Positions 26,584-48,700 of a stretch of 64,000 nt of DNA are shown in pieces. The stretch is from Candidatus Izemoplasmatales bacterium. Lineage in GTDB: Bacteria; Bacillota_I; Bacilli_A; Izemoplasmatales; Hujiaoplasmataceae. The notes beneath the pieces were generated by a model. That model had not been told where the DNA came from. It ran no database searches and saw only the letters and a list, made by a program, of their open reading frames with translations. The stretch covers positions 24,479 to 88,478 of the forward strand of contig JBFXGX010000004.1 of assembly GCA_050177605.1 (NCBI GenBank). The letters run 5' to 3'. How positions within the stretch are numbered: the stretch's first letter is position 1; each line of letters opens with the position of its first letter. The translations under genes and the position numbers were made by a program.

Positions 26584-28881
26584 ATGATTAAACTAGTGAA
26601 TGTAACTAAACAATTTAAAACTAATAAGAAGATTACGACTTTATTTAAAGACGTTACCTATTCATTTCCAGACAAAGGAATTGTCATTCTTCATGGAAAG
26701 AGTGGCGTTGGAAAAACAACACTACTTAATTTAATCAGCAAATATGACGAATTCTATGAAGGATCAATATTGTTTAAAAATAAGGATATCAGAACTATCA
26801 ACTCAGATGACTATCGTCTGAATCATATTGGATTTATATTTCAAGAATTCTATTTGCTTGATGATTTATCAGTCATAGATAATATTGCCTTATCAGCAGA
26901 AATCAAAGGTGTAACAAAAGAAGCAGCCATTTTAAAAAGTGAGTTGTTACTGAATGAAATGGGTATGCAGGATATTCAACATCAAAAAGTAAATACATTG
27001 AGCGGAGGAGAGAAACAAAGAGTTTCGTTTCTTCGTGCTATGATAAAAGAACCAGATCTCATTATCGCAGATGAACCAACAGGAAATCTTGATGATGATA
27101 ATACAAAAATGATACTAGAATTACTAAAGCGGTATGCTAAAGAACATCTTGTCATCATAGTAACTCATGAATTATCTATTATTGAGCAACTGAATTGTGA
27201 AAACATTGAAATAGATGGCATGAATTTGATAACTACAGAGAAGCATGAATCTTCTCTTGAAAATGATAATATAAAAATAATGAAACCAAAAACGCCAATA
27301 TCGTTTTTGTTTCATCTAGCTTTAAACAGTTTTAGAACTATGAAATTCAAATTTGTTATTTCAACCCTTATCCTCTGGTTAAGTTTTGTCCTCTTTGGTT
27401 TAGTATTTTATTTAGCGACATATCCACAAAATCAGATTGCGGCTAATGCTTATATTGACTCTAACAACCCTTCATTTCGATTGAATCTAGAAACAGACAA
27501 TTGCGGAATTTCCGAGATTTGGGGTGGATGCTATGAAGAAAGTTTACCTATTCGAGATAGTGAAATAGAGATGCTTTCTCAAATCAATAAGGATATTTCT
27601 ATTAATAAGGTAATCCCTAAACAAAATATCCAAGTGGCAGTGCAAGATAAATCCGAATTAGATGATTTATATGAATCTATTGTTGTCATAGATCGTAGCG
27701 AAAATTCGCTACCGATCTATGTAGGAAAGTACCCCTCTAGCGAAAATGAGATTCTTTTGACAGATTATCTCTATGACCAATTGTTTCCTGAACGAAATAA
27801 TACATTCATTCAAAACCTTTCTGTTGAACTAAATGGTGTAAACTTCATAATCAGTGGGGTAGTGAAAACAAATTATGATCAATATAATTTGCTTTGTTTT
27901 AGTGAACCCTATACAGAAGAACGGTTCTACACTGATTTCATGTTTAATTTAGGAACTGTTTACATTACTTTGGATGGATTAAGTTATCTTTCAAGAAATA
28001 CTGTTCAATTTACTGTTCGAAATTCAATAGCCCAATTCACACCTAGATTTAATACATTTATCAATGCTTCAACTTTTAATCCAACTATCCTCTACGGAAA
28101 AGCACCTGAAAATAGAAATGAAATTATATTGCCTACTACAGTAGGAGTTTATAGTGAAGCAGAATATATAAATATGCTTAATACACAAATCACAGTTGAG
28201 TTTTCTTTACCAAGCACTTACAGTTATCCCTATACTGAGGACAAAACCTACACTGTAGTTGGTTTTTATGAACCGGAAGATATTACTGGAATTGTACTAC
28301 ATACTGATGAGTTTTCATCATACTTCATCAACTCAGTTGATCCAATTCAAGTTGATGTTATTTTTGATAAGGATGCAAGTTCCCTCACTGATTTTTTAAA
28401 TGTTGTAAGTGAAAGCAATTATAAACATGCAAGCGCAATTTCTCCTTCCCTACATTTTGTAACAGAAGTATTTTCAAGTTTACGCAGTGTACTGCTTGGA
28501 ATTACGCTGTCATTTTCTTTTCTTAGTAGTTTTATTTTAATTAGTTATTTCAATAATAGCTTGAAACTAAGAAGAAAAGAAATAGGTGTCCTAAAATCTC
28601 TAGGTGTTAGTAGAAATAAAGTTTCAGTTATCTTCGTTATTGAAGGAATAATCATTTCGATTTCTGCATATTTCCTATCAGTTATCTCTATTGCTTTTAT
28701 ATTTGAACAGGTTAATAATCTTTTTAATTCTGAATTTGAAACATCCATTAATCTGTTTTCGATAAATGCTTATTTGATTATCTCTATATTTGTTTATGCA
28801 GCAATAATTATTTTCATTTCTTCAATAGCTCCTGTTAGAAAATTACTCAAGTTAAATAGTATTGATATTATCAGGATATGA
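26584..28881 (+). CDS. ABC transporter, fused ATP-binding and FtsX/MacB-type permease
   Basis: GKSGVGKT, LSGGEKQR, ADEPTGNLD, KEIGVLKSLG. Confidence 0.9.
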   Translation: MIKLVNVTKQFKTNKKITTLFKDVTYSFPDKGIVILHGKSGVGKTTLLNLISKYDEFYEGSILFKNKDIRTINSDDYRLNHIGFIFQEFYLLDDLSVIDNIALSAEIKGVTKEAAILKSELLLNEMGMQDIQHQKVNTLSGGEKQRVSFLRAMIKEPDLIIADEPTGNLDDDNTKMILELLKRYAKEHLVIIVTHELSIIEQLNCENIEIDGMNLITTEKHESSLENDNIKIMKPKTPISFLFHLALNSFRTMKFKFVISTLILWLSFVLFGLVFYLATYPQNQIAANAYIDSNNPSFRLNLETDNCGISEIWGGCYEESLPIRDSEIEMLSQINKDISINKVIPKQNIQVAVQDKSELDDLYESIVVIDRSENSLPIYVGKYPSSENEILLTDYLYDQLFPERNNTFIQNLSVELNGVNFIISGVVKTNYDQYNLLCFSEPYTEERFYTDFMFNLGTVYITLDGLSYLSRNTVQFTVRNSIAQFTPRFNTFINASTFNPTILYGKAPENRNEIILPTTVGVYSEAEYINMLNTQITVEFSLPSTYSYPYTEDKTYTVVGFYEPEDITGIVLHTDEFSSYFINSVDPIQVDVIFDKDASSLTDFLNVVSESNYKHASAISPSLHFVTEVFSSLRSVLLGITLSFSFLSSFILISYFNNSLKLRRKEIGVLKSLGVSRNKVSVIFVIEGIIISISAYFLSVISIAFIFEQVNNLFNSEFETSINLFSINAYLIISIFVYAAIIIFISSIAPVRKLLKLNSIDIIRI

Positions 28882-34499: not shown

Positions 34500-34850
34500 T
34501 TATTTGATAAATTCCTATTTTGAACATAACATTCAAACAAATTTCTTTCATTATATTCACAATTCCGTCTGAGAGTATATATTTCCTATTTCAAGATAAG
34601 TACCAAAAAGATGTTTGCGTTGTCGAAAAATCATTCTGATAAACGTCCCATTTATCCGGTAAATTCTCAGTATAATTTGTTTATAATAGATATGGGATTT
34701 AGCAACAAAGCAATTATATTATTATTCGCACATATATTAGACTATAGTTAATGTAGTTACAATCTAGTTAATTAATGAAATTAATAGTGAGGTTTAATTA
34801 TTGCAAAATATCTATAGCGTTATAATCATAGAAATATGGAGAAGAGAAAA

Positions 34851-36893
34851 ATGAAAATCGAGAAGATTGAACTAAAGAACTACAGACTTATGCAAAATAC
34901 TAGTCTTCGTTTAGAGGATTTGGAGACTGTAATTGTAGGAAAAAACAATACTGGAAAGACTTCTTTAATGTCTTTTTTGCATCTAATAACTGGAGACAAA
35001 TCAAAAACTTTTCTATTTGATGATTACCCGGTTCCCTATAGAAATAGTATTTATGACTTTATACTTACTATAGATTTATTATCTCTTGATGATAATGAAG
35101 TCAGAAAAGTTTTTAAAGAACCGGAATTGCGAATAGAAATTGATTATAGTGATTTTGATGAAAATTCATCTTTGGGTGGATTGAGACCATTTGTAATTGA
35201 TTTGGAAGAGACAGTTAAGAAAACAATTGTGCTTGCTAGATATGATTATATTTTACCGATTACTTCATTACTGTTGATGATTAAAAATATTAGAATACAA
35301 AAAGAGTATATTGAAGGTGATGAAAGTGTAAAAAGGACAATTATCCGTGAACGAATATCATCGTATTTTCCAAATTTTTACAAACTAAATATTTATGCAG
35401 TTAATCCGATGACTGAGACAGATATTCAATTAAAAACACAAGAAGACTTAAAGAACCTTCTTTCAATCTACTTTGTAAGAGCAGAAAGAGCTATGGATGA
35501 ATCCGATCAAGGGAATAATAAGCAACTTGAAAAACTCTTGGATAGAATATTCAGTCCATTAACTGAACTTGATGAAGTAGATGAAACTGATACAACGCCT
35601 GAAGGAATCAAAAGAGCAGAAATTTTTCGGATGCGAAGCGGAATACAAGAAATGGTTTCAAGCTTTAATTCTGATATAAATGAAAAAATAGATATTAAAA
35701 TGGTAGAACTAATAAAAAAATCAATCGGATTTGGATATCCAGACAGTGAAGAAATATCACTTTCTGCAAAGTCTAACATACATATTGATGATTTAATTCG
35801 AAGAAATACTGACCTTTGGTATGTAGACCCATTAACAAATGAAGTATTACCTAGTTCATTGAACGGGTTAGGATATAAAAATTTGTTGAAAATCGAGTTT
35901 GAATTAGTAAACTATTTTCAAACAGTTGAAAACGACAAAGAAGGGCGACTTTATTTGCTTTTTATTGAAGAACCTGAATCACATATGCATCCACAGCTTC
36001 AACAAAAATTCGTTTCTTTTTTATCTGAATTTTTAAAAGGACTGTCATCCAAAAAAATTCAGGTGATTTTGACTACACATTCTTCTCATATTGTCAATCA
36101 AGTCAAATTTTCAAGCATAAGATATGCAAAAAAAACCGGTCTGTCATTAGAATTAAAGGATTTCAAAGAATTCAGCACAGATAATCCTGATAATGCTGAG
36201 TTTATTCAAAAATATTTAACACTATATAGATGCGACTTATTTTTCGCGGATAAAGCAATATTATTCGAAGGATCATCCGAACGAATATTAATACCTGAAG
36301 TCATTAGAAGACTAGCCCAAAACAATAAATTTGTTGGTACTAGTGTGCCACTCGACAGACAATATATATCACTTATTGAAGTTGGTGGCGCATATGCTTA
36401 TCTATTCTTTGAATTTCTTAAATTCCTTGAACTACCATCTTTAATTATTACTGATATTGATTCGATTGATAGTGAACGAAAAAAGTGTGTTGTTAGCGAG
36501 GGGGTGTCTTCTTCAAATGCAACAATAAAAAAATGGTTTGAACTATATATAAATCCAGATGATAGATCCAAAGATGAAACTTCTTTAGCTAAGATAATAG
36601 AACTATCTGAGGACGAAAAAACTCAAGGTAACATTCATATAACATATCAAACTGAGGAGAACTCTATCATTGCAAGAAGTTTAGAGGAGTCAATAATCAA
36701 TATTAATAGAGTTTACTTTAAATGCTCACCAGATTCCAATGAAGAAGAAATCAAATGCAAAAATTCATCTAAAATCGATTTTGCATTGAATCTCATATTT
36801 GATAACCCCAATTTTGTCATTCCTCATTACATTGAAAGTGGGTTGACTTGGCTAAATAGTGCAAATAAAAGTGAGGTTATTCATCGTGAATAA
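34851..36893 (+). CDS. gajA: OLD-family ATP-dependent nuclease (ABC ATPase plus TOPRIM), Gabija GajA-like
   Basis: VGKNNTGKTS, IEEPESHMHPQLQ, TTHSSHI, LFEGSSE, TDID; RBS GGAG before ATG 34851; followed by a UvrD gene. Confidence 0.8.
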   Translation: MKIEKIELKNYRLMQNTSLRLEDLETVIVGKNNTGKTSLMSFLHLITGDKSKTFLFDDYPVPYRNSIYDFILTIDLLSLDDNEVRKVFKEPELRIEIDYSDFDENSSLGGLRPFVIDLEETVKKTIVLARYDYILPITSLLLMIKNIRIQKEYIEGDESVKRTIIRERISSYFPNFYKLNIYAVNPMTETDIQLKTQEDLKNLLSIYFVRAERAMDESDQGNNKQLEKLLDRIFSPLTELDEVDETDTTPEGIKRAEIFRMRSGIQEMVSSFNSDINEKIDIKMVELIKKSIGFGYPDSEEISLSAKSNIHIDDLIRRNTDLWYVDPLTNEVLPSSLNGLGYKNLLKIEFELVNYFQTVENDKEGRLYLLFIEEPESHMHPQLQQKFVSFLSEFLKGLSSKKIQVILTTHSSHIVNQVKFSSIRYAKKTGLSLELKDFKEFSTDNPDNAEFIQKYLTLYRCDLFFADKAILFEGSSERILIPEVIRRLAQNNKFVGTSVPLDRQYISLIEVGGAYAYLFFEFLKFLELPSLIITDIDSIDSERKKCVVSEGVSSSNATIKKWFELYINPDDRSKDETSLAKIIELSEDEKTQGNIHITYQTEENSIIARSLEESIININRVYFKCSPDSNEEEIKCKNSSKIDFALNLIFDNPNFVIPHYIESGLTWLNSANKSEVIHRE

Positions 36894-38592
36894 TAGAAAA
36901 TTAGCAATAGAAGAAGCTAATAAGATTGATTTTGAAATAATCGAGGCTCTACAAAAGGGTTCGCATTTTAGGGTTGACGCTGGGGCTGGTAGTGGAAAAA
37001 CATATTCATTAATTAGAGCTGTTGAGTGGCTACAGGAAAATAAATGGAATGAGTTCAATAGAATGAATCAAAAGGTTGCATGTATCACTTATACGAATGC
37101 AGCAGTAGATGTAATTCGAAGTCGTTTAAAAAATGATTCATTCATCATACCATCAACAATTCATTCATTTGTCTGGGAAGCAATGAAGCAGTTTCAAATT
37201 GATTTACTTAGAAATGCAAAGGAGATTTTGATTGATAAAGATTACATAGATTTTAATTATGTAAAAAAAATAGAATATACATTAGGAAAAAGATATCAAG
37301 ATGGTGATACTCTATATTTATTCCATGATGATGTAATTAAGTTATTCGTTATATTAATTGATAAGCCAAAATTTAGAACGATATTAAGTAATCAATATCC
37401 TATAATTCTGATTGATGAATACCAAGATTCATTTAAATCTATCGTAGATAAATTTGTTGAGTATTTCATTGAAAACAAGTCTACACCTCAATTTGGATTT
37501 TTTGGTGATTCTTGGCAAACCATTTATCAAATGCAAGGAGCTGTTGGTGAGATTAATAGCGATAATATAGTCATAATTCAAAAGAAATCAAACTTTCGCT
37601 CTGCAAGCAAAATTGTAGAAATGCTTAATAGAATAAGACCGGAATTACAACAAATAACCGCTGAAGACAATTATGAAGGAAGTACTACAATAATTGATTG
37701 CAGTGATTATAAGGGTAGTAGAATTCAGGGTGGACTGTTTTCAAATGATTTGCCAAACGACGTACTAATGGAGCGTATAGAGAATTTAGAAAATGTACTG
37801 TATAGAGACTTAACTAAAACCTGTAAGACTTTATTTTTAACACATCGAATAATTGCCAGTAATGAAGGTTACCCTGACTTGTTAAATCTTTTTGATGATG
37901 GTTTTAAAGACAAAACAGATGCTTTTTTGCTCTTTTTTATGGAGAAAGTTGAACTTATTGTCAGTGGTTTAGAACAGGGATTAACACAACAAATTTTTGA
38001 TGTCTTAGGTTTAAAGCAATATCCTATTAACGCGATTTCTGATAAGAAAAAATGGTATAAATTTAAAGATGACATATTTACAAGCAGAAATAAAAAAGTT
38101 ATCGATGTACTAGATTCAATTAATAACAGTGGATTGCTTACATTTCCGGAAGAGATTGAAAAAATATATAGTAATTATCCAAAAAATAATGAAGAACCCT
38201 ACAGAAATGGGTCAATAGGTAAATTAATGAATCTAGATTATTCACAGATATTAGCTGCAATCTCTTATCATAAACCAAACTCACTAGTGTCAACAAATCA
38301 TGGTGTTAAAGGCGAAGAATACGATAATGTAATTTTTGTTGTCAGCAAAGGTTGGAATAACTACAATTTTGATAAGTATCTACCAATGAGCCAAAAAGAA
38401 CAAAAAGATAATTATGAATCATACAAAAGAAATAGAAACTTGTTTTATGTTTGCTGCTCTAGAGCTAAGTCAAATTTCATCATGTTCATAACATACCCCG
38501 TGTCAAATGGGTTTAAAGAATATTTGACTAATTTGGTAGGTATCAATAACTACATGAGTTATGATCAATATATTAAACAGAATAATGCTTAA
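36886..38592 (+). CDS. gajB: UvrD-like helicase, Gabija GajB-like
   Basis: AGAGSGKT, ITYTNAA, IDEYQD, FGDSWQTIY, NFRS, HGVKGEEY, FYVCCSRAK; GTG start at 36886 with RBS GAGGT overlaps the GajA stop. Confidence 0.8.
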   Translation: MNNRKLAIEEANKIDFEIIEALQKGSHFRVDAGAGSGKTYSLIRAVEWLQENKWNEFNRMNQKVACITYTNAAVDVIRSRLKNDSFIIPSTIHSFVWEAMKQFQIDLLRNAKEILIDKDYIDFNYVKKIEYTLGKRYQDGDTLYLFHDDVIKLFVILIDKPKFRTILSNQYPIILIDEYQDSFKSIVDKFVEYFIENKSTPQFGFFGDSWQTIYQMQGAVGEINSDNIVIIQKKSNFRSASKIVEMLNRIRPELQQITAEDNYEGSTTIIDCSDYKGSRIQGGLFSNDLPNDVLMERIENLENVLYRDLTKTCKTLFLTHRIIASNEGYPDLLNLFDDGFKDKTDAFLLFFMEKVELIVSGLEQGLTQQIFDVLGLKQYPINAISDKKKWYKFKDDIFTSRNKKVIDVLDSINNSGLLTFPEEIEKIYSNYPKNNEEPYRNGSIGKLMNLDYSQILAAISYHKPNSLVSTNHGVKGEEYDNVIFVVSKGWNNYNFDKYLPMSQKEQKDNYESYKRNRNLFYVCCSRAKSNFIMFITYPVSNGFKEYLTNLVGINNYMSYDQYIKQNNA

Positions 38593-38967
38593 ATAGCGAT
38601 TTATTATGTTATTCTGAAACAAGGGTTATTCACTTGTTTATTTGTAAAGTTGTGTTAAATGTAGATTTCAGTTGTAGTTATATATTTTCTTTGTTCGGTT
38701 CTATACTGACAATATTATTTTAAGGAATAGAGCCTTTTTTATTACGAATCTTGAAATATGTCTCTATCATTGCTGATTATTCTGAAAATTAACAAATGTC
38801 TTCTCTTTGAAAAAAATCGGAATTCAGATATTATGATATATGCGCAATTATAGTGAATTAATTACTCAACCTCAAAGATAGATTCTTAAGGAACAAGAAT
38901 TTGAACAATACAAGTAATTATTTCGTATGCAGGTTAAATAGATTTGCTTTAATCAGGGGGTATTCAA

Positions 38968-39408
38968 TTGATGAAAAAGGAAGATGTAGAGAAGAAAATA
39001 GAACAATTATGTTCTTTCATAGGAACACGTATTAATAAAAATTTGGCTACAACAGCCATAACTTGTTCTGGTTATGCTGCTGAACATAATATTCCTAGTC
39101 AAGACTCGTTAGCAATTGTTGGAGATCATGTTATAAAATTGTTAATTTCTTCGTCAAATTACAAAAAAACGCCTGTTATATCGAAAGAGAAACTACATCA
39201 AGCCGTAGATAAAAATGGACAAAATGAATTTTTGGAAAAAATAGGACAAGAGCAAAATATTGATAAATTTCTACTATATATAAACACTGATCTAGAAGGC
39301 AAAAAGAAAAGAGCTACATCTCTTGAAGCTATTATTGGCGCTGTTTATCTATCAAAGGGAAGCAAAGCAGTTGAAAAATTAGCACATAAGTTAAAAATAC
39401 TTGAATAG
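38968..39408 (+). CDS. Stand-alone RNase III domain protein (Mini-III-like, no dsRBD)
   Basis: LAIVGDHV and ATSLEAIIGAVYL match the Mini-III pattern LAxxGD / TxxEAxxGxxYL. Confidence 0.75.
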   Translation: MMKKEDVEKKIEQLCSFIGTRINKNLATTAITCSGYAAEHNIPSQDSLAIVGDHVIKLLISSSNYKKTPVISKEKLHQAVDKNGQNEFLEKIGQEQNIDKFLLYINTDLEGKKKRATSLEAIIGAVYLSKGSKAVEKLAHKLKILE

Positions 39409-39445
39409 ATATTGCTAAGGATTTTACGAGTTCTATAATAAAATT

Positions 39446-39586
39446 AGAAAAAATAACTGAGGATTGCATTTCCTCAATAAGAGTTGATATCTCTTAAATG
39501 AACTATAACAGTTGGCGCTCTTATCAAGTTGCAATGCCAAACCTTAATGACAAATAAACCAAGGCAGTAAAATGTTTTGGTTTTTT
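39446..39586 (+). ncRNA. Candidate ~140 nt structured sRNA with its own promoter and terminator
   Basis: TTGCTA-16-TATAAT (39412-39439); three hairpins with complementary loops; terminator AAACCAAGGCA/TGTTTTGGTTT plus T run (39556-39586). Confidence 0.55.
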
Positions 39587-39683
39587 GTTCCTCAATATTC
39601 AAAATAATTATATATCTCATATTTATGTTGATTAGTATAAAATATTTCTTTATATTTACGATAAATAATGCTATAATCAAGTT

Positions 39684-39770
39684 GCGGAACGTAAACACTA
39701 TGGGTGTACTCCTTCGTTCCGCAAAACTATAGGTGTACACCTCCATATAATTAATTTGCACTCTTTTTCA
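39684..39770 (+). ncRNA. Candidate short RNA A (3' end uncertain)
   Basis: Extended -10 TGCTATAAT (39669-39677); stem GCGGAACG/CGTTCCGC; two CTATRGGTGTAC copies. Confidence 0.45.
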
Positions 39771-39814
39771 AAAAAATGATTGCAATTTTTTATTTTTGGG
39801 ATTATACTGTAATT

Positions 39815-40045
39815 GCGGAACGAGGGCGGTCATCGTTTTTAAAAGACCGAAACCCAAAAAGGTTACTATTAATTTATTAGTAATCTGAGTAGGATGTACA
39901 CCTATATATATTCACACGAAATGTGTGAACGAAAGGCAGAAAGACTCCAAAATTGGATTGTTTTTTGATTTCTTTTCGCTCGAGAGAAAAGAATGCAGAA
40001 ACGATCAATATGAGTTTATCTGTACACCAATATATATAGGAGAAG
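39815..40045 (+). ncRNA. Candidate structured leader or ncRNA B of the viperin operon
   Basis: TTGCAA-17-TATACT (39780-39808); at least four hairpins; two TGAGT-N4/5-TGTACACC-WATATATA motifs. Confidence 0.55.
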
Positions 40046-40050
40046 ATAAA

Positions 40051-40506
40051 ATGAACTATTTTTTAGTGAAGTGTAAATTTGGCCATGTAGGAAGAAACAA
40101 GTATTTACCTTTATTGATTCCAGTGATTGCTGAAAACGCAAAAGAAGCTAGTAGCCAAGCAAAAAAGATTGGTGGAGTAAAAAAAGATCATAAGGATTGG
40201 TGTTTAGAGTATCCAAAACAAGTAGAATTCAATGAATATCAAAAAGCATATATTGATTTTAGAAATGATATCTATTTTGAAAAGAAAAGCAGATCTCGTA
40301 TTGAGTTATTTACAGGAAGACTCGTTGATGAGCCAAACTACTCAAATATCAATGGCATAAAAACTAACAAACCGATTATTTATCATAAAAGAAATAGAGA
40401 TGTAATAGAGTATAAGAAGAAAAGAGAGCAGGAGTACCTTTCAACTATCAGCCCTTATAGACTTAGAATACTTAACAGTACCTCGAAGCCAAAAGGAGTT
40501 GCGTAG
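40051..40506 (+). CDS. Basic hypothetical protein (151 aa), first gene of the viperin operon
   Basis: RBS AGGAG at 40038 then ATG at 40051; KCKFGHVGRNKY...VIAENAKEA; family not recognised. Confidence 0.75.
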   Translation: MNYFLVKCKFGHVGRNKYLPLLIPVIAENAKEASSQAKKIGGVKKDHKDWCLEYPKQVEFNEYQKAYIDFRNDIYFEKKSRSRIELFTGRLVDEPNYSNINGIKTNKPIIYHKRNRDVIEYKKKREQEYLSTISPYRLRILNSTSKPKGVA

Positions 40507-40507
40507 T

Positions 40508-41341
40508 ATGGGACAGTATCCATTTCACGTGTTCAATTTTCACCTTACAGAAAAATGTAATTATCAATGTAAATATTGCTTTGCCAAGTTTAACAATCAA
40601 TCTGAACTCAATCTAAAACAATGGAAAGAGGCTGTTGACTTAACGAATCAATATTTTATAAGAAATAATATTAGAAATGGAAGAATCAACCTGGCAGGGG
40701 GAGAACCATTAATTCTTCCCTTTCTAGATGAATTAATCGATTATATTCATTCTCTAGACATTATTGTCTCGATTATCACAAACGCTTCACTGCTTACGGA
40801 AGAAAAGATACAAAAATGGATTGGTAAGGTTGACACAATTGGTGTAAGCATCGATTCCATAAATTATAAAACAAATCTGAAAATAGGCCGACATAACAAT
40901 GGACAAGTAATAGATGTTGAAAACATTATTTCATTGCTCCAACTAGCGAAGAAAAATAATATCAAGGTTAAGATTAACACAGTTGTTTCTGCGCTAAATA
41001 TAAATGAAAGAATAGATCAAATATATAAACGAGTTCAACCCGATAGAATTAAAATACTACAGATGAGGGTAAACCAAAATTGCAATGAACATTCTATTAT
41101 GCTTCAAACTTCTGATGAAGATTTCCATAAACATTGTAGATATTTGAATAATTACCAAAATGTTGTGATTGAGAACTCGCAAGAATTAGAATGCTCATAT
41201 CTAATAGTTGACTCAATGGGGAATATGCTTTCCAACAAAAATAATGTTCAAAATATTGTAGGGAATATCTTGAAAGATGATATAGAAAAGATGATTGATG
41301 CTGCCGAAATAAATCATTTTACATACGCAAAAAGATACTAA
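40508..41341 (+). CDS. Prokaryotic viperin (radical SAM antiviral enzyme, pVip)
   Basis: NFHLTEKCNYQCKYCFA, INLAGGEP, SIITNASLL, GVSIDS, KINTVV, RIKILQ, SYLIVDSMG; RBS AAAGGAG then ATG at 40508. Confidence 0.88.
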   Translation: MGQYPFHVFNFHLTEKCNYQCKYCFAKFNNQSELNLKQWKEAVDLTNQYFIRNNIRNGRINLAGGEPLILPFLDELIDYIHSLDIIVSIITNASLLTEEKIQKWIGKVDTIGVSIDSINYKTNLKIGRHNNGQVIDVENIISLLQLAKKNNIKVKINTVVSALNINERIDQIYKRVQPDRIKILQMRVNQNCNEHSIMLQTSDEDFHKHCRYLNNYQNVVIENSQELECSYLIVDSMGNMLSNKNNVQNIVGNILKDDIEKMIDAAEINHFTYAKRY

Positions 41342-41357
41342 TTTTTGAGGAGGAAAT

Positions 41358-43925
41358 ATGGAACTTATTTTAAAACTGTCATATAACAATAAAGATTCAA
41401 ACCCAGGGCTACTGGAGTGGTATAACGATTTAATTACAAATAAGAACATTTTAACTGCCAAACTTTCAACTAAAAGACTAGACATCGAAAGAGATACTAA
41501 AGATGCAAGAAATATCAAATCACTTAGAAAAATAGAAATCGCTATAGAACTAGTTGAAGGTTTTCTTGTTTTGAAAGGTCATCTGGGGTGTTCATATAAA
41601 CAACCTTTTGGTGGAGAATTCTATATTATTGATTATAAAGAAATTTCTAACGGAAAATTTTCATCGCTGAATGGAGTTCCGGTTGATTTAATGTTTGATA
41701 ATAACTATCCCACAACAATTGAGAATATGTATACATACTTATATGTGATTAGCAGTGATTCTAATTTTGTATTCAATATCGGACAATTTGACGAATTTAT
41801 GGAAGTTTTCAAATTTTATAAAACACTCTCAGATGAAATTAATAATAGTGCAACTTACGAAATTAAAGAAGTAAGCTCACCTTATTATTATCTGCCAGTT
41901 GATACGAAAGAACTTTTCGATGAAGAAAATAATATACTTTCAAATTATGTAGGAATTGTAACAATAAATGATAAAGAAGATCTTATAAAAGGATATCGTA
42001 TTCCAAACTATATTTATGATCGCTTTAATAATGAATTAAAGGACATTACAATGAGTTTAGTCGATATCCATATCGATTATCAAGAACATGCGTTACGGAA
42101 GATTCAAAAAATGAGAGATAATATTTTTGTAAGTGATTACAAATTAGTCGATGAAAAAAACGCTAAAAATATAAGAGAACTTGAATTCGTCAATTTGTAT
42201 AGACAAAAAGACAGGATAATAATCAATGTGAATGAAAGCCATGTAATCAAAGAGAAATTTCTTAACCTATATGATATGGGCCAAAAAATAAAAATAGAAT
42301 CCATCGAAAATTCATTGAGATTAATAAACCAAGGGAACACAGGCGCATCCATGAAAATGATTGAGTATCTTATCGGAGATGAAGCTATGCCAAGTGCTAA
42401 TAGTAGGCATATTAGTAATCAAGCATACATTCAATCTGAATTACGCGTGAATAAAGTTAAGGAAAAATATATTAAAGAATTAAACGAGTCTCAACAAATA
42501 GCCTTTTTAAAGTCGGTTGATGGGTTGCCTGTAACACTTATTAAAGGTCCACCAGGCACAGGAAAAACGCATGTAATTAATGCGGTTACACAGTATATAA
42601 CAAAAGAGCTCCATGAAAAAGTAGTTATATCTTCTCAAACCCATGTAGCTATAGATAATGTTCTTGATAAGTTAATGGAAAACTATGATTTAGTCATTCC
42701 AAATAGGATTACTAATCGACGCAACAAGTATAGTTTGGAGGAAATTGATAAAACAATTTATAAAAATTGGGGTTTAAAAATTGATAATCATCTTTCAAGG
42801 TGCACAGATCAAACCTTGGTAAGTAGAGTGAAAGATAATCTTAAGAATTTCAATGGAAAGCAAGAGATTGAGTATTCAAGAAATATGATTAACGAATTCT
42901 CAGTTATTGGAGCAACAACTACCACAAGCGCTATATCTGGAAAGAAAGGTCTTGAATTACTTAAAGATTATAAATGGTTAATTATTGATGAAGTATCAAA
43001 ATCGCCTATTACTGAAGTCTTAAGATACTTGCCTTATGTAGATAATATCATTTTGGTTGGCGATGATTATCAATTATCTCCTCTTCTAGAATTTTCAAAA
43101 GAGGATGTAAAACATTTACCTTCTTATGATGATGAGATGTATGATAAATTACAAACAATCTATGAACAATCTATCTTCTCAAAAACAATTAATAAAGCAA
43201 GAGCTGCTGGACGACTCATTGTTCTTGAAGAAAATTATCGATCTGTGAAAGATGTTTTAGCAGCGTACAATGTATTTTACGATGGAAAACTTAAGAATAT
43301 GAGAGAAAATATTAATCCGAGAAAAGTACAGTTTGGCAGTCAATCGTCTCTTTCAAATAACTATGATGTCTTTTTTGTAGAACCTCTTGGTGCGACAGAA
43401 AAAGATGATTCGAAATCTCATTCTAGATATAATATTCAAGAAGCGCAGGCGACCGCATTGATACTAGAAGATATATTGAAAAATGTGATTAATCCTAGTT
43501 CGGTTTCTGCCTCGGCAATATTTCCATACGCTGCTCAAATTGAGTATTTCACAAAAAACTATAAAGACCTAATAAACCGGGCAAAGAAAGTTTTGAAAAG
43601 TTTTGAATTGGATACAGTGGATGCGTTTCAAGGTCGCGAAACAGACATTGTCTTAGTTAATACAGTAGTCACAAGACTCGATAAAAAGAACTTTCTAAAG
43701 GATTTTAGAAGAATCAATGTTTCAATGTCTAGAGCAAAAGACAAACTTGTTGTATTTGGGTCTCGCGACCTAATGCGTCTAGAAATGGATACCCCTGATG
43801 GAGGAACAAGACAATATTTTAGATCGATTATTGAAGCAATCACAAGAGATGGAAAAACGATTAAAGTGAACCAAAAAGGAGAGATAATTAGCAATGAAAG
43901 TACAAGTAAGACTAAATTTGCCTGA
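41358..43925 (+). CDS. SF1B DNA2/NAM7 (Upf1-like) helicase with a long uncharacterised N-terminal region
   Basis: GPPGTGKT, SSQTHVAIDN, IIDEVS, VGDDYQLSP, NYRS, PYAAQ, TVDAFQGRE, RRINVSMSRAK. Confidence 0.88.
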   Translation: MELILKLSYNNKDSNPGLLEWYNDLITNKNILTAKLSTKRLDIERDTKDARNIKSLRKIEIAIELVEGFLVLKGHLGCSYKQPFGGEFYIIDYKEISNGKFSSLNGVPVDLMFDNNYPTTIENMYTYLYVISSDSNFVFNIGQFDEFMEVFKFYKTLSDEINNSATYEIKEVSSPYYYLPVDTKELFDEENNILSNYVGIVTINDKEDLIKGYRIPNYIYDRFNNELKDITMSLVDIHIDYQEHALRKIQKMRDNIFVSDYKLVDEKNAKNIRELEFVNLYRQKDRIIINVNESHVIKEKFLNLYDMGQKIKIESIENSLRLINQGNTGASMKMIEYLIGDEAMPSANSRHISNQAYIQSELRVNKVKEKYIKELNESQQIAFLKSVDGLPVTLIKGPPGTGKTHVINAVTQYITKELHEKVVISSQTHVAIDNVLDKLMENYDLVIPNRITNRRNKYSLEEIDKTIYKNWGLKIDNHLSRCTDQTLVSRVKDNLKNFNGKQEIEYSRNMINEFSVIGATTTTSAISGKKGLELLKDYKWLIIDEVSKSPITEVLRYLPYVDNIILVGDDYQLSPLLEFSKEDVKHLPSYDDEMYDKLQTIYEQSIFSKTINKARAAGRLIVLEENYRSVKDVLAAYNVFYDGKLKNMRENINPRKVQFGSQSSLSNNYDVFFVEPLGATEKDDSKSHSRYNIQEAQATALILEDILKNVINPSSVSASAIFPYAAQIEYFTKNYKDLINRAKKVLKSFELDTVDAFQGRETDIVLVNTVVTRLDKKNFLKDFRRINVSMSRAKDKLVVFGSRDLMRLEMDTPDGGTRQYFRSIIEAITRDGKTIKVNQKGEIISNESTSKTKFA

Positions 43926-45321
43926 AATTAAATATAAATTAATTATGAAATATAATACCTTTGAAAAGGTGTCGTTTGATAAATATTTGATTGCGTCTTT
44001 AATTTACTCCTCTACTAGTCAAAATTCGGCCTATCAGTTTATTGATCAATTATCTGGTGATGGAAGTTTGAACGAGCATTTTAAAAAGTTATATCTTGAG
44101 ATTAATGAAATGTCAAAGGATGAAATATATAGTATTCTTCAAAATTCACAATATCCAGTTCTTAAAATAAGTGAAGAATGGTTTAGGTATTATCCGCTAT
44201 TAAATATATCCAAATATCATAATCATATCTATTGTGATAATCTTGCAAATGATAAGAGTTTTCCGCTGCAACTTATTGAACAGGGTGGTACATATGTATC
44301 TCATAATTATGAACAAGGACAACCTGAATCCAATGTTGATCGATACGATGTAATATTAGAGCCGAATAAAATACAATTAAAAGTTGTAAATGATTTCTAT
44401 CCGATTTCTGAGTTAGACTTTCAACGAATAGTAGTTAAGGATTCAATTGATTTGAGCGCCTTTCGTGGAGATATACTAAAAGCGTTGACTGGAAATGATT
44501 GGATACAAATGAGCCAATCTAATTATAGAAATATTATGGATGCAAAGGATTACTATTACGAAAATGGCAATCATTTTGGAATCTATAATGATTATGTGAA
44601 GGAATCTTCGATTGCATTCGCATGGGGGCTATATTGGCTGAAGGAGAGAACATATTATTATCGTGATCCATCCTCAAAAGAGCAGTGCACGAAAGTAGCC
44701 AATGTATTACTTGAAACCGGAATGATCAATGAGTTCAAGACAAAATCACTTGTTGAAATATTAAAGAATATATCTAGAGATTTACAGCAGACAATTGTTA
44801 ATTACATTTTACAAAGAAAAGATTCAAAAGACCTAATCAACGTTGGTTACATTTTGATGGATAAGGGTTATGAAAAGGGCTGGTTTGAGAGTTCGCTCCT
44901 TGCTTTTTACAAATACAGAACATCTACTGAACAATTAATTAAAGTATACTCTCACTTCGACTCGGACATTTATACAATATCTGATCTGCTTGAGATTGAA
45001 AAATATGATAAGTCTGTACTTAGACATAATCATTCAATACAACTTGAAGTATACCATTCGGACCGTAATAAAATAATTAATACTATCACTTCAAGAGTAG
45101 GTGTTGTTACGTCATCTAGTGTGCGTGATAATATAGGTAGATTAAGACAAGATGAGGAAACAAAGAGACTTAAAAAATTAATGAACAAATATATTGGGCA
45201 TATGCAGAAAGATATTAACACTCAAAGCTTAGAGCAACTCAAGAAAATTGAAAATGATGTAGAGGAAATGTATCTTCTACATCTTCGAGTTAAGCAGGAG
45301 TTAGAGAGGTTACTTCAATAA
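43894..45321 (+). CDS. Hypothetical protein (475 aa) overlapping the helicase 3' end
   Basis: Long ORF; AGGAG RBS upstream; helical/coiled-coil C-terminus; family not recognised. Confidence 0.75.
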   Translation: MKVQVRLNLPEIKYKLIMKYNTFEKVSFDKYLIASLIYSSTSQNSAYQFIDQLSGDGSLNEHFKKLYLEINEMSKDEIYSILQNSQYPVLKISEEWFRYYPLLNISKYHNHIYCDNLANDKSFPLQLIEQGGTYVSHNYEQGQPESNVDRYDVILEPNKIQLKVVNDFYPISELDFQRIVVKDSIDLSAFRGDILKALTGNDWIQMSQSNYRNIMDAKDYYYENGNHFGIYNDYVKESSIAFAWGLYWLKERTYYYRDPSSKEQCTKVANVLLETGMINEFKTKSLVEILKNISRDLQQTIVNYILQRKDSKDLINVGYILMDKGYEKGWFESSLLAFYKYRTSTEQLIKVYSHFDSDIYTISDLLEIEKYDKSVLRHNHSIQLEVYHSDRNKIINTITSRVGVVTSSSVRDNIGRLRQDEETKRLKKLMNKYIGHMQKDINTQSLEQLKKIENDVEEMYLLHLRVKQELERLLQ

Positions 45322-45368
45322 CAAAAATTAAACAATAAGTCATAAAATAATTGAAAGGGGGTGTACGT

Positions 45369-45512
45369 ATGTCGAAACAAAACATTAGTCCAAAGAACAA
45401 CTCAGCTAATATGCAAAACGCGAATAAAGGAACAAGTGGAGTAAATAAACAATACTCACAAGTTCAAGGAAACCGTGGAGCACAAATGAATCCGAACAAA
45501 AAAGGAAAGTAG
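45369..45512 (+). CDS. 47-aa Asn/Gln/Gly/Lys-rich small protein (absent from the ORF track)
   Basis: RBS AAAGGGGGTG; MSKQNISPKNNSANMQNANKGTSGVNKQYSQVQGNRGAQMNPNKKGK*; terminator follows. Confidence 0.75.
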   Translation: MSKQNISPKNNSANMQNANKGTSGVNKQYSQVQGNRGAQMNPNKKGK

Positions 45513-45578
45513 GATAATTTGTTGCAACCCGCAAGAAAAAAATCATCGTTACTTTTTTGATATACTCAAATTGATTTC

Positions 45579-45605
45579 AATGCTTCCAATCGGAAGCATT
45601 TTTTT
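45579..45605 (+). terminator. Intrinsic terminator closing the viperin operon
   Basis: AATGCTTCC-AATC-GGAAGCATT plus T run. Confidence 0.85.
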
Positions 45606-45747
45606 AATACATTTTTTTGGGAGTTTATTTGAGGGAAATGAATTGTAACACGGGAATTCTTCGTAGAATTTTTTATTAATGGATATTTTTTATAGCAAAT
45701 TTATTGTATAATTAAACATAGAGTAACATAACTTTATAATTTAATTA

Positions 45748-48700
45748 ATGTCTTTTTTTGCGGGGTTATCTATGATTGTATTTCTTGATGTAGAAGTTTC
45801 TTTAGATAGTAAAAAAATAGTAGACTACGGCTGTTTGCGTGAAAATGGGGATTCTTTTCATACCGCTTCGGTGAGTGAGTTTATTAAATTTACCAAAAAA
45901 GCAGATATTTTTGTTGGACATAATATCATTTTTCATGATGTAAAATATCTGCAAAAAGTACTTCCAAGAAATTATATAAAAGAAATCAACTGTGTTGATA
46001 CACTTTTTCTATCGACACTATTATTCCCTGAGAACCCATACCATGCCCTTCTAAAAGATGATAAAACAGATAGCGATGATGCTAATAATCCTCTGAATGA
46101 TTCAATAAAAGCAAAACTTCTATTTGATGATGAAGTATCAACTTTTGAAAAACTAGATAATGATATTCAAGAGATATATTACAATTTGCTTTGGAATCAA
46201 CCAGGATTTGCAGCTTTTTTCAAGTATATCAAGTTCGATAGAAAACTAAAAAATTTAGCTGAAGTTATTAAATCCAAATATTATAATTTAATCTGTTCGA
46301 ATACAGATTTGGACAATGTTATTAAAAATTCTCCGATTGAATTAGCATATTGCTTGGCCTTAATTAGGACTAAAAAACTAAACTCATTAATGCCTGGATG
46401 GGTTTTAGTGAATTATCCTCAAGTTGAAGAAATTATGACTCAACTCCGTAATACTCCTTGTGCGATAGGATGTTCCTATTGTAATCAAAAACTAAATGCA
46501 ATTACTGAATTAAATCGCTTCTTTGATTATCCAAATTTCAAAGAATATAATGGAATTCCTCTTCAAGAAAAAGCTGTGAAAGCTGCGATGGAAGGAAAGT
46601 CGTTAATCGCTGTTTTTCCAACTGGAGGAGGAAAATCATTAACTTATCAATTGCCAGCATTAATCAGTCGAGAAAGTACAAGGGGACTCACTGTTGTAAT
46701 ATCACCTCTACAATCATTGATGAAAGATCAAGTTGATAATCTTGAAAGCAAAAATATTAATGCTTCAGTAACAATAAACGGTTTACTAGACCCTCTTGCA
46801 AGAAAAACAGCAATTGAGCGTGTAGAGAACGGCTCTGCAGGTATTTTATATATCGCTCCCGAATCACTCCGATCAAAGACTATTGAGAGATTATTGGTAC
46901 ATAGACACGTTGTTCGATTTGTAATAGATGAAGCACATTGCTTTTCTGCATGGGGTCAAGATTTCAGAGTTGACTATTTATATATCGCCGATTTTATAAA
47001 GAATATCCAAAATATTAAAGGGAATCGTAGTCCCATACCTGTATCCTGTTTTACTGCAACAGCAAAGCAGAATGTTATCAAGGATATTGAAGATTATTTC
47101 AGGAAAAAATTAGGTATTTCAATGCTTTTATTCGAAGCTAGTGGTAAAAGAGAAAATTTACACTATAAAGTCTACGATTTAAAAACAGAAGATGACAAAT
47201 ATAAACTGATGAGGAATTTGATTGATCAAGAAAATTGCCCATCCATTGTCTATGCTTCTAGAAGAAAGACTGTAGAAGAGATATATGAACGACTTTTAAA
47301 CGACAATTATAAAGTTTCTAGATTCCATGGTGGTATGCAATCAGAGGAAAAGGAATCTGAACAAAACAAGTTTATGAGTGGCGAATCCACGATAATGATT
47401 GCTACTTCAGCTTTTGGTATGGGCGTTGACAAAAAAGATGTAGGATGTGTTATTCACTATGAAATTTCAAGTTCGCTTGAAGATTATGTTCAAGAATCTG
47501 GAAGAGCAGGTAGAGACCAAGACATTTTTGCAAACTGTTATATTTTGTATCAAGAAGACGATTTGAATAAACATTTTAATCTACTGAATCAAAGTAAAAT
47601 TACTGTTAAGGAAATTCAGCAAGTATGGAAAGGAATTAAGGATTTAAGCAAGATTCAGAACAACATTTCGCACTCAGCACTTGAAATTGCGAAAGCGGCT
47701 GGATGGGATGACAGTATATATGATTTGCAAACTCGCGTTACAACAGCTGTTGCAGTTTTGGAACAGTCAGGATATCTGAAAAGGGGACAAAATTCTCCAA
47801 AAGTATATGCGAATAGTATTTTGTCTCGAAGTGTAATTGATGCGCGCAAAATAATTGAATCGAGTGAAATTGTACCGAAAGACGATATCGATAATACAGT
47901 GCGAGTATTTTCAAAATTAATTTCAGCAAAATCCAATAAATATTCAAATGAAGAAATTCCTGAAGTTCGAATAGATTATATTTCGGAGCATCTAGGAATT
48001 CAAAAAAATGAAGTAGTTAGATTAGTCAATTATTTAAGGGAACTCAAGATTTTAGATGACGCTAAAGACTTATCTGCATATTTTAGAAGAACTTCAAAGC
48101 AAAATATTGCAAATAAAATACTACTATCATACATAGAACTCATCAAAAATATAATTAATGACTTTAGTACTGATTGGCAAATATATAACGTCAAAGAGAT
48201 TAATGAGAGAAATAGTGGAGATAATGTAGAATCAAATCTCAGAAAGATTAAGAATACAATCAACTTTTTAGAAATCGAAAACTATATTGAAATTCAAAAA
48301 CTAGAAAAAGATTATTTAAAAATTAGATTAAAAAAGCAAATTGAAGATACAGTTTTTTCACTTGAGCATATGTGGTCAATTTCCAGTGTAATCCTAACTT
48401 ATTTTGATTTAATCTCTAAAGATAAAATTAGAGAAGATATCGAATACATTGGAGTTAATTTTTCGGTAATAGAATTAAGAGATTATTACGAGACTAATAA
48501 ATCTTTACTCGACACAAAAAGCACATTAGATGAAATAGAAGATTCTCTATTGTTTTTACATAAAATTGAGGCCATTAAACTTCAAGGCGGATTTTTCGTG
48601 TTATACAGTCCTATGAAAATTGATAGAATTGAAATGGATAATCGAAAGCAATACACTAAGGCGGATTATGAAAAATTAGATCAATATTATAAGTCGAAAA

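Follow-up and report, generated by a model that had tools for sequence, protein, structure and literature searches.

The window analysed here is a stretch of 64,000 nucleotides from a Candidatus Izemoplasmatales bacterium. Its + strand carries, at 40051-45512, five co-oriented and closely packed genes behind a non-coding region with two promoter-like sites. The features of the locus are the following:

39649-39677 (+): predicted promoter-like site of sRNA1, with an extended -10; a matching -10 lies at equal upstream distance in the related loci L002 and L003
39682-39797 (+): sRNA1, a putative upstream small RNA (fold, covariation and complementarity)
39780-39808 (+): predicted promoter-like site of the operon leader, whose -35 and -10 elements align in 10 loci
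39812-39896 (+): conserved leader RNA motif (covariance model R1)
39897-40050 (+): remainder of the 5' UTR, containing the complement of the sRNA1 tail (about 39895-39906), a weak hairpin with a T-run (about 39953-39966) and the RBS
40051-40506 (+): 151-aa basic protein, family F7 (ORF)
40499-41341 (+): pVip, a radical SAM protein of 280 aa starting at 40499 or 40508 (PADLOC, NCBIfam, Pfam)
41358-43925 (+): Upf1-like SF1B helicase, 855 aa (Pfam, PADLOC, NCBIfam, PDB relatives)
43894-45321 (+): partner protein of the helicase, 475 aa, the two genes sharing 32 nt (ORF)
45369-45512 (+): ORF of a 47-aa N/Q/K-rich peptide, doubtful as a member of the operon
45579-45610 (+): predicted intrinsic terminator-like hairpin (45579-45600) with T-run, at the operon end

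The intergenic gaps are 1, 16, -32 and 47 nt, the first measured from the ATG at 40508, and the ORF coordinates thus bear out the five tight genes described in the original prediction. The closing terminator and the two upstream promoters that it proposed were located by our scan as terminator-like and promoter-like sites, although the promoter scan is weak on its own, with 53 promoter-like sites against 43 expected by chance. The view of the genes as one tight operon inside a defence island is upheld: between 24 and 61 kb the window holds DRT, Gabija, HKD-Snf2 and type III and type IV restriction systems. Other loci of the family neighbour type I R-M, GmrSD, AbiE, NERD or Hhe-like genes, or sit in conjugative elements. 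The evidence for a defence role that comes from this neighbourhood is circumstantial.

The helicase is Upf1-like by Pfam (AAA_12, 112.6 bits; AAA_11, 87.1 bits; both above the cut-off of 27), and its nearest solved chains are those of Upf1/NAM7 (E 1e-20). The Walker A (GPPGTGKT) and Walker B (DEVSK) motifs are unchanged in 21 of 21 helicase sequences, and the N-terminus is formed by a conserved region of about 370 aa that is specific to the family. All 25 related genome loci contain the helicase with the 475-aa gene adjoining and overlapping it, and the pair is likewise adjacent and overlapping in the 11 RNA-bearing metagenome loci that reach that far (11/11). These two genes are the invariant core of the system. 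In one lineage the two RNAs accompany this pair; as it is found without them in 15 of the 25 genome loci, its function does not require them.

The partner protein gave no PADLOC match at E <= 0.01 and no significant Pfam or NCBIfam match, PLD included; Foldseek against the PDB returned nothing at E <= 0.001, the PDB sequence-profile search was negative and the ESM Atlas offered no usable match, so that no catalytic fold was recognisable in it by Foldseek, VIA or the PDB profile. In the wide VIA comparison, residues 387-475 had generic helical-bundle matches only (best Z 8.3), and a resemblance of residues 24-90 to BrxA (Z 6.6) was discarded as too weak to use. At E <= 0.001, a search of 1.84 billion proteins yielded 134 representatives of the family and no relatives beyond it. 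A complex prediction of helicase residues 1-372 with the 475-aa protein scored 0.01, which speaks neither for nor against an interaction.

The identity of pVip is clear from its score above the curated model NF038283 (viperin_w_prok, NCBIfam; 241 bits, cut-off 180), from the Pfam Radical_SAM model (73.5 bits, cut-off 29.5) and from a PADLOC match (E 6e-70) whose top model is that of viperins not associated with kinases. Close to the N-terminus the protein carries CNYQCKYC, the CxxxCxxC cluster motif of radical SAM enzymes. The gene is flanked by those of the 151-aa protein (gap of 1 nt) and the helicase (gap of 16 nt), and no terminator was found between them. In the family as a whole pVip is present in 3 of the 25 genome loci, at three differing positions, and in 2 of 23 metagenome loci. 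The position it takes in the window recurs only in L002/L041 and L033, where the order RNA, F7, pVip, helicase is repeated; the proteins of L033 share about 56-68% identity with the closest counterparts that the window and the genome loci encode. In other loci the stretch upstream of the helicase is filled by enzymes recognisable with Pfam, PADLOC or NCBIfam, the variable genes including pVip, Fic, a ThiC-like radical SAM enzyme and an ADP-ribosylglycohydrolase. pVip is therefore optional cargo, dispensable for the helicase family. The original prediction of a fixed five-gene viperin system stands for the helicase and the 475-aa protein, which co-occur strictly, and fails for pVip; as only those two genes do so, the locus is a helicase-centred system that sometimes carries a viperin and not a system with viperin at its centre.

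The small proteins do not co-occur as had been proposed either. In most loci the place of the 151-aa protein is taken by an unrelated 114-aa protein (family F2), a relationship between the two having been rejected by hhalign (probability 0.1%). The 151-aa protein has 44 homologues and no Pfam, PADLOC or NCBIfam match, and it falls only with unnamed clusters of the ESM Atlas. Its AF2 model (pLDDT 86.8) shows a weak likeness of the N-terminal 69 or so residues to ribosomal protein eL20/LX (Foldseek probability 0.72, best VIA Z 5.1), which can serve as a lead only. For the 47-aa peptide we obtained no PADLOC, Pfam or NCBIfam match and no significant homologue in 50 loci; as judged from sequence it is not conserved, and it is doubtful that it belongs to the operon. 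L003 and L007 encode another peptide, of 53 aa and N/Q-rich, at the equivalent place, with a faint likeness to it.

The approximately 370 nt of structured, mutually complementary non-coding DNA announced for the region upstream of the genes proved genuine: shuffle z-scores, covariation, covariance-model matches and conserved RNA-RNA complementarity all agree. The leader consists of ACGA at 39820, the hairpin P2 (39824-39855), an A-run, the hairpin P3 (39861-39885) and UGAGUAGG at 39886-39893. The segment 39812-40055 folds better than its shuffles (z -6.9), and the non-coding region is more conserved than the proteins when the window, L002 and L003 are compared. Besides the window, the motif occurs in 31 loci, 9 from genomes and 22 from metagenomes. 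The metagenomes were scanned with an exact DNA pattern, which misses diverged variants, and yielded 23 matches, 22 of them true; L043 matched the pattern, failed the covariance model and forms no P3, and was excluded from the counts. With L041 left out as a duplicate of L002, the model recovered 21 of the 22 metagenome matches searched, and its scores range from 31.8 to 89.1 bits over 31 loci including the window (71.9 bits). A helicase lies downstream in all 18 true-motif metagenome loci with enough downstream DNA. P2 and P3 fold in all 22 distinct true variants, using several differing stem sequences. In the leader, 89% of cells are paired, a value reached by none of 500 shuffles, and P3 is 97.9% paired with 3 compensatory pairs.

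The leader thus combines a position in the 5' UTR with a conserved, structured and covarying core, as riboswitches do. The words ACGA, CCAAAAAGGU and UCUGAGUAGG are invariant in the first alignment of 10 sequences, and the model used leaves them single-stranded or puts them at the ends of helices. Across the 31 matches aligned with the model they stay nearly invariant, with protein identities near 30%; this near-invariance is to be read in the knowledge that the metagenome members were chosen by a pattern containing these same words. Such strongly conserved unpaired bases, unexplained by pure antisense control, suggest contact with a ligand or a protein. A terminator-like hairpin with a T-run is present in the leader of 11 of 25 distinct loci, F2-type loci having such a platform, and the control mechanism is therefore not uniform. 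The minimum-free-energy fold of the window pairs the stretch after the motif with the RBS region, a pairing that, judged by eye, is not kept in L002. An extra AACGA/UCGUU helix seen by eye in the window-type leader was rejected, being absent as a conserved feature in F2-type loci. An Rfam cmscan of 38500-46000 at E <= 1 found no family, abiF and riboswitches included, in 39600-40050; in agreement with the original prediction, no described system or Rfam family matches the locus as a whole (PADLOC, NCBIfam, Rfam).

sRNA1 is predicted to have its own promoter and terminator, the latter a weak hairpin with a T-run at its 3' end. It contains the hairpin H1 (39682-39691 with 39715-39724) and a pseudoknot, H2, in which the loop 39702-39708 pairs with the tail 39736-39742; the fold of 39681-39800 has a z of -4.0 against shuffles. 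Across 15 sequences of type A the paired cells amount to 97.1% and 5 pairs show compensatory change; none of 500 shuffles scored as high. In its 3' half sRNA1 carries sequence antisense to the first 10-15 nt of the leader and to the 3' flank of P2, and in the subtype of the window its tail is additionally antisense to the sequence right after the leader motif. The perfect complement to the leader 5' end measures 10-15 nt in 28 of 28 distinct loci, compared with about 5 nt in controls. The paired leader segment takes 15 different forms, with several cores among them, and each form finds its complement in the sRNA1 of the same locus. Duplex energies give moderate z-scores only (-1.4 to -6.1), because AT-rich shuffles pair too, and the count of contiguous complement is the cleaner test. 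The strict co-variation of the leader 5' end with sRNA1 shows that selection maintains the RNA-RNA pairing, no matter what other partner binds. The description of the locus as RNA-gated is, on these sequence grounds, plausible in the sense of regulation of operon expression.

The same helicase pair is found behind other front ends. In 10 sister loci the RNAs are absent and their place is taken by a stand-alone CARF protein (E 5e-77) together with a protein that weakly resembles sigma70; a promoter-like box is shared by 9 of these 10 loci (11 upstream regions were aligned, L018 not among them). The front end of L007 consists of two Xre-type HTH genes. CARF is restricted to the 10 sister loci, and neither a CARF nor a SAVED sensor was found in the window; Cas10 was not found above cut-off in the genome of the window (89% complete), nor were cas genes among the scanned flanking ORFs of at least 140 aa. 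The distribution of the family is patchy, with 7 of 399 genomes and 6 of 172 genera. Searches of 72,556 plasmid and 50,697 phage records gave no match, and a scan of viral contigs was negative for the RNA motif.

Taken together, we favour, with a probability of about 0.55, the reading of the locus as a member of a rare, undescribed, modular and inducible candidate anti-phage operon, which combines an antisense-RNA/leader switch, swappable enzymes and the helicase pair. In this lineage the front end would be made of the structured 5' leader on the operon mRNA and the separately transcribed sRNA1. By pairing, sRNA1 would remodel the leader and so set read-through, translation or stability of the operon, following a logic like that of RNA antitoxins and type I TA: loss or displacement of sRNA1 during infection would switch the operon. 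A variable middle would follow, with a small basic protein, here that of 151 aa, and then the optional enzymes. pVip would contribute chain-terminating ddh-nucleotides to the response and would act together with the Upf1-like helicase and its 475-aa partner, which we infer to be the system's own nucleic-acid sensor or effector.

An unlikely alternative is that the genes are chance neighbours in a defence island, a self-sufficient pVip happening to have an unrelated small gene on one side and a Mokosh-like helicase system on the other, with the RNAs regulating only part of the string. The 22 genome loci that lack pVip and the three positions it occupies where present would fit such an accident, as would the best PADLOC model being that of viperins without kinases. 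According to work from 2021, pVips reportedly defend on their own, and the placement of this one may hence add nothing mechanistic. Against chance stand the terminator-free wedging of pVip at gaps of 1 and 16 nt, the recurrence of the order RNA, F7, pVip, helicase in L002/L041 and L033, and the recognisable enzymes that other loci carry at the corresponding place ahead of the helicase. We consider it very unlikely that the locus has no part in immunity and instead provides integrative or conjugative elements with a maintenance, addiction or exclusion module, in which the sRNA would be the antitoxin to a toxic helicase complex. Several loci do have serine recombinases, a TraG-like coupling protein, a Toprim/DUF3991 gene, ArdA or a MobL relaxase as neighbours, and an antisense RNA with a target leader resembles type I TA logic; the lack of matches in the plasmid and phage records and of the motif in viral contigs, together with the defence-gene neighbours in the window, L002, L003, L004, L008, L015 and L023, argues the other way, and addiction and abortive-infection roles are in any case mutually compatible.

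It is rather doubtful that binding and not antisense pairing is the primary switch, with the leader as a riboswitch-like or protein-binding sensor, of an infection-induced nucleotide for example or of a protein of the system held by the unpaired bases, and sRNA1 as a decoy or second half. The (near-)invariant ACGA, CCAAAAAGGU and UCUGAGUAGG, unpaired or at helix ends, the two covarying hairpins and the terminator-like platform of F2-type loci are in agreement with such a sensor, and sister loci place a ligand sensor, CARF, with the sigma-like protein at the same spot; the leader has no Rfam match, however, no ligand can be inferred, the platform occurs in just 11 of 25 loci, and the co-variation of the leader 5' end with sRNA1 shows selection on the pairing itself. 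A bolder and quite improbable idea has sRNA1 and leader forming one two-piece structured RNA that is the infection sensor of the system. sRNA1 would act as a splint, holding the leader 5' end, the flank of P2 and the sequence after the motif together in a closed junction surrounding the invariant CCAAAAAGG / UGAGUAGG loop, and this complex would perform with RNA the task of the CARF and sigma-like pair of the sister loci; it might either bind a nucleotide signal made during infection or be unwound by the Upf1-like helicase to fire the operon. If so, this would make bimolecular RNA immune switches a new class, here with viperin among the targets.

The modular, RNA-switched operon that we prefer would, if correct, represent a new helicase-based defence family whose partner protein has no relatives outside the family, and a new conserved bacterial RNA pair outside Rfam, with pairing maintained through many sequence variants. 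It would also offer a natural experiment, in which one effector pair stands behind an RNA switch, a CARF and sigma-like pair or HTH regulators, and different enzymes (pVip, Fic, the ThiC-like radical SAM enzyme, the ADP-ribosylglycohydrolase) are plugged in ahead of it. We know of no earlier case of a prokaryotic viperin under a dedicated RNA-controlled inducible operon, and such control would bear on how the self-toxicity of chain-terminator nucleotides is limited. Word searches of open-access text found no description of the gene set or the RNA, subscription journals and supplements being outside their scope.

Among known systems, type I Mokosh is similar in pairing an SF1 Upf1-like helicase with a second protein in a defence-island setting, and the helicase matches positions 506-1101 of the 1112 of the MkoA model (PADLOC, E 3e-68). 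It differs in that the N-terminal half of MkoA is left unmatched and that MkoB is a PLD nuclease, whereas the partner here has no PLD match; to our knowledge, Mokosh has neither an RNA front end nor swappable enzyme cargo. The 280-aa protein satisfies the curated pVip models and has the radical SAM cysteine motif, yet described pVips are, going by the model names, single or accompanied by nucleotide kinases, and this one lies within a helicase operon behind a structured leader. Type I TA shares with the locus a separate small RNA, predicted here, in which at least 10-15 nt are complementary to the start of the mRNA beside it. A type I toxin is small and hydrophobic, in contrast to the large soluble proteins of this operon: the first ORF encodes the basic, soluble-looking 151-aa protein, in some loci the helicase itself comes first, and no small hydrophobic toxin was found. 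Furthermore, the sRNA here stands in tandem on the same strand, and the conserved core of the leader is aptamer-like.

AbiF and the type III TA RNA antitoxins likewise have a (candidate) defence gene immediately preceded by a structured non-coding RNA, and for AbiF with the ncRNA RCd22/abiF motif this RNA is described as controlling the defence gene in cis and in trans (PMC12373285). As described there, the AbiF RNA neutralises its protein by direct binding through two repeated motifs, unlike the two RNAs of this locus, which are fitted to pair mutually. Finally, the sister loci resemble CalpL-CalpT-CalpS and other cOA-controlled transcription modules of type III CRISPR in placing a CARF protein with a weakly sigma70-like protein before the helicase pair, an analogy that suggests signal-controlled transcription. 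They differ from the Calp modules in that neither a SAVED-Lon protease nor an anti-sigma factor was seen, and the window uses RNAs instead.

The predicted operon, five tightly packed ORFs, lies within positions 39650-45610 of the plus strand; the ORFs are listed below together with the predicted signals around them.

Features of the operon in the window
39649-39677 and 39780-39808, plus strand: two promoter-like sites (signal scan)
40051-40506, plus strand: 151-aa basic protein, family F7 (ORF call)
40499 (TTG) or 40508 (ATG) to 41341, plus strand: 280-aa radical SAM protein (ORF call)
41358-43925, plus strand: 855-aa helicase (ORF call)
43894-45321, plus strand: 475-aa protein, overlapping the helicase gene by 32 nt
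45369-45512, plus strand: 47-aa ORF (ORF call)
45579, plus strand: terminator-like hairpin with a T-run (signal scan)

The ORF call and the signal scan confirm the five co-oriented, tightly spaced genes, the two promoter-like sites and the closing terminator-like hairpin of the original prediction; the promoter scan is weak when taken alone (53 sites, with 43 expected). The 280-aa radical SAM protein matches the PADLOC pVip model (E 6e-70) and NCBIfam viperin_w_prok (241 bits, cut-off 180) and is, judging by its sequence, a bona fide prokaryotic viperin (pVip). The 855-aa protein contains AAA_11 and AAA_12 domains, has Upf1/NAM7 as nearest solved chains (E 1e-20) and is classified on these matches as a Upf1-like helicase. 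In PADLOC its likeness to Mokosh MkoA is to the C-terminal half of that model (E 3e-68), and its N-terminal ~370 residues are family-specific and strongly conserved. The 151-aa, 475-aa and 47-aa products gave zero matches in Pfam, PADLOC and NCBIfam. The AF2 model of the 475-aa protein is confident (pLDDT 90.8), and neither Foldseek nor VIA returned a convincing match to its fold. Among 1.84 billion proteins its family has 134 representatives at E <= 0.001 and 81 at E <= 1e-30, with no fused forms, and is in these searches closed and small. In the 151-aa protein, residues 1-69 show a weak likeness to ribosomal protein eL20/LX (Z 5.1 with rmsd 2.4 Å across 63 residues; Foldseek probability 0.72); together with the basic tail of the protein, this likeness is a lead towards possible RNA binding and nothing more.

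Homologues numbered 64 for the 475-aa protein and 44 for the 151-aa protein, and most belong to assemblies of Acholeplasma-like bacteria and other Bacillota. Using one genome per species we obtained 25 related loci (L002-L026, some ending at a contig edge), and in 25/25 the helicase gene lies directly 5' of the 475-aa gene and overlaps it. pVip is present in only 3/25, placed in L002 as in the window, in L021 just downstream of the pair and in L025 as the first gene of a longer co-oriented string. F7 is found in 4/25, including L003, which carries F7, helicase and partner without any pVip. A 114-aa family, F2, unrelated to F7 (hhalign probability 0.1%), occurs in 15/25; its gene is first or early in the co-oriented string, preceded in some loci by Fic, ADP-ribosylglycohydrolase (ARH) or pVip genes. 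Variable inserts separate the first small gene from the helicase or closely flank the unit on either side; depending on the locus they encode a SoFic-like Fic protein, an ARH, a 377-aa protein weakly resembling DEDD exonucleases, or a ThiC-like radical SAM protein accompanied by a 185-aa protein. Because the other genes vary between loci while the pair stays constant, the unit is, on comparative grounds, a helicase pair with a variable front, and the five-gene set of the window is one configuration of it. The five-gene viperin system originally proposed therefore stands for the helicase and its 475-aa partner and not for pVip or F7: gene co-occurrence places the centre of the system in the helicase pair rather than in viperin, and the 47-aa peptide is probably outside it.

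Several neighbouring genes deserve separate description. The ThiC-like protein and its 185-aa companion lie in or beside the helicase operon at L017:3735-5442, L018:2482-4193 and L024:10378-12074. The former matches Pfam ThiC_Rad_SAM (E 3e-92) and falls under the NCBIfam ThiC cut-offs, and the latter has no known family; oddly placed for a ThiC relative, the ThiC-like protein may act in defence by modifying nucleotides. Immediately past the 475-aa gene, where the window has its 47-aa ORF, L003 (9484-9642) and L007 (9445-9603) encode two similar 53-aa N/Q/D-rich peptides with zero Pfam family matches and only a faint QMNPN-like likeness to the 47-aa ORF (tblastn E 0.18 and 8.9). In the metagenome loci L031 and L039 (both 6495-7937, minus strand) a 481-aa protein without a Pfam family replaces the small leader protein between RNA motif and helicase, and the start of its gene is seen in L038.

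In the alignment of the window with L002 and L003, the upstream 370 nt are better conserved than the proteins. A structured leader starts just past the second promoter, with invariant ACGA, CCAAAAAGGU and UCUGAGUAGG around hairpins P2 and P3; Rfam gave zero matches to it. A covariance model built from ten sequences and run over 26 sources returned the same ten only (52-89 bits), the next best match scoring 16.7 bits. Scanning metagenome contigs with an exact pattern gave 23 more loci, of which 22 are true motifs and one (L043) a false positive; of the 22 searched with the model, 21 were recovered, L041 having been kept out as identical to L002. In the model alignment, which was fitted to the model and so leans towards structure, 89% of cells are paired, with 0/500 shuffles as high and slid controls at <=47%; within P3 the paired share is 97.9%, and three of its pairs have changed on both sides. 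P2 and P3 also fold unaided in 22/22 distinct true variants, across several different P2 stem sequences. A helicase gene lies downstream in 18/18 true-motif metagenome loci with enough DNA (in four more the contig ends too early), and the 475-aa gene comes next in 11/11 that reach that far. The RNA is followed by F7-helicase, F2-helicase, the helicase directly, 481-aa protein-helicase or F7-pVip-helicase, the last order being found among metagenome loci in L033 and L041. A terminator-like platform is present in 11/25 distinct loci, mainly of F2 type, and in the minimum free energy fold of the window's leader the post-motif stretch pairs with the RBS region, a pairing that is not conserved.

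Upstream of the leader, a small RNA (sRNA1) is predicted with its own promoter and a hairpin with U-run, this terminator being strong in L003 and F2-type loci and weak in the window. Its two sequence types match the two leader types. Type A, which includes the window, forms a 10-bp hairpin with a loop-to-tail pseudoknot, 97.1% paired across 15 sequences, with five pairs changed on both sides and 0/500 shuffles scoring as high. Over its 3' half, sRNA1 reads as the reverse complement of two leader segments, the initial 10-15 nt and the P2 3' flank (GGGUGU opposite ACACCC, or GGAGUGUU opposite AACACUCC); the type A tail further complements the 12 nt directly after the leader motif. The longest perfect complement between leader 5' end and upstream region measures 10-15 nt (mean 12.5) in 28/28 distinct loci, compared with 4.8 and 5.6 nt in two controls.

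A coding explanation of this region is disfavoured, because in L002 one-base indels are compensated on both strands. The paired leader segments come in 15 different versions with several different cores, each matched by a complementary stretch of sRNA1 in its own locus, and by eye the bases concerned have no internal partner in the leader; their co-variation therefore argues that selection acts on RNA-RNA pairing in trans. On this comparative evidence the two RNAs are a novel interacting pair, and the earlier description of the region as structured and mutually complementary was right and, if anything, understated. For the switch itself we favour antisense control, in which sRNA1 binding would reshape the leader. 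The invariant unpaired leader bases hint at a further contact, be it a ligand or a protein, so a riboswitch-like or RNP mechanism may also apply.

The sRNA/leader front end is found in the window and 31 other loci. Ten genome loci (L014, L016, L017, L018, L019, L021 and L023-L026; e.g. L014:3921-5442) instead have a stand-alone CARF protein (matching PADLOC CARF2, E 5e-77) and, behind it, a ~295-aa protein, in every case placed directly 5' of the helicase pair; the RNAs and this CARF pair never occur in one locus. The sigma70/HTH likeness of the ~295-aa protein is weak but repeated (NCBIfam RpoD_Cterm E 2e-4; PDB SigA E 0.003; Sigma70_r3 in 5/10 members). Aligning 11 upstream regions, with L018 left out, revealed that 9/10 CARF loci have in common a promoter-like box (GTGTTAAGTT, spacer, CTATATAA) before their first gene, and that L007 and L009 lack it. 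The CARF and sigma-like pair may be a cOA-controlled transcription module without cas genes in the flanks examined. L007, without RNA motif or CARF, has two Xre-type HTH genes between F7 protein and helicase (4830-5366), which would constitute a third kind of regulatory front end. From this pattern we infer that the front end is regulatory and interchangeable.

The window's system is embedded in a long co-oriented defence island.

Defence-island genes around the system
24022-28881: two mad3/mad8-like ATPases, preceding the reverse transcriptase
Also preceding the reverse transcriptase: LmuA/MBL-like gene
31731-34499: 922-aa DRT-type UG5-nitrilase reverse transcriptase, carrying a nitrilase domain (PADLOC RT_UG5-nitrilase, E 2e-100)
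34836-38592: Gabija GajA and GajB
45748-50586: 1612-aa exonuclease-RecQ-UvrD giant, directly downstream of the system
Same island: HKD-Snf2 protein, type III R-M and type IV enzyme

In the giant, an exonuclease-like N-terminal part is joined to two helicases, one DEAD and RecQ/DpdF-like, the other UvrD/GajB-like. A 146-aa stand-alone RNase III-like (mini-III-like) gene (38968-39408), with its own terminator-like hairpin after it (39556-39583), separates Gabija from the RNA region; no related locus was found to have this gene. Counting the window's genome, the 475-aa family is present in 7/399 sampled genomes and 6/172 genera of the phylum. In two sampled genomes, G116 and G391, the 475-aa gene homologue contains three in-frame TGA codons, which suggests that the system also occurs in Mollicutes-like hosts reading TGA as tryptophan (code 4). 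Plasmid and phage records gave zero matches, nor did a scan of viral contigs turn up the RNA motif. Neighbours in other loci include type I R-M, GmrSD, D12 methylase, AbiEii, NERD, TmtA-like and Hhe/PDC-S37-like genes and, in several, the conjugative-element genes serine recombinase, TraG, ArdA and MobL, a pattern that fits, and does not prove, a mobile defence module.

From comparative genomics, with the observed anatomy, conservation, RNA structures and complementarity, family assignments and defence-island setting as its basis, we infer how the system may work. The interchangeable regulatory front ends point to an operon kept under tight, signal-dependent control, as expected of a costly or toxic defence. 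The helicase pair would be the constant executive part, with pVip, Fic, the ThiC-like enzyme or ARH as putative add-on effectors. We regard the locus as a genuine and conserved candidate defence system, so far undescribed, that includes a novel interacting RNA pair; the original observation is confirmed, and its interpretation is partly supported, with revision as to the centre of the system and the 47-aa peptide.

Word searches of open-access text found no description of this gene set or of its RNAs. The system would work like other helicase-centred defence pairs, but it departs from Mokosh type I in its partner, which gave no PLD match, and its helicase covers no more than half of MkoA. The viperin is an ordinary family member in an unusual context. 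The CARF and sigma-like sister loci recall the cOA-controlled transcription modules of type III CRISPR; no Cas10 above the cut-off was found in the window's genome (89% complete). The RNA part is reminiscent of RNA-controlled Abi and toxin-antitoxin systems, such as AbiF with RCd22 and type I TA pairing, but matches neither in sequence nor architecture: here the two RNAs follow one another on one strand, the conserved core is aptamer-like, and the operon goes without a small hydrophobic toxin.
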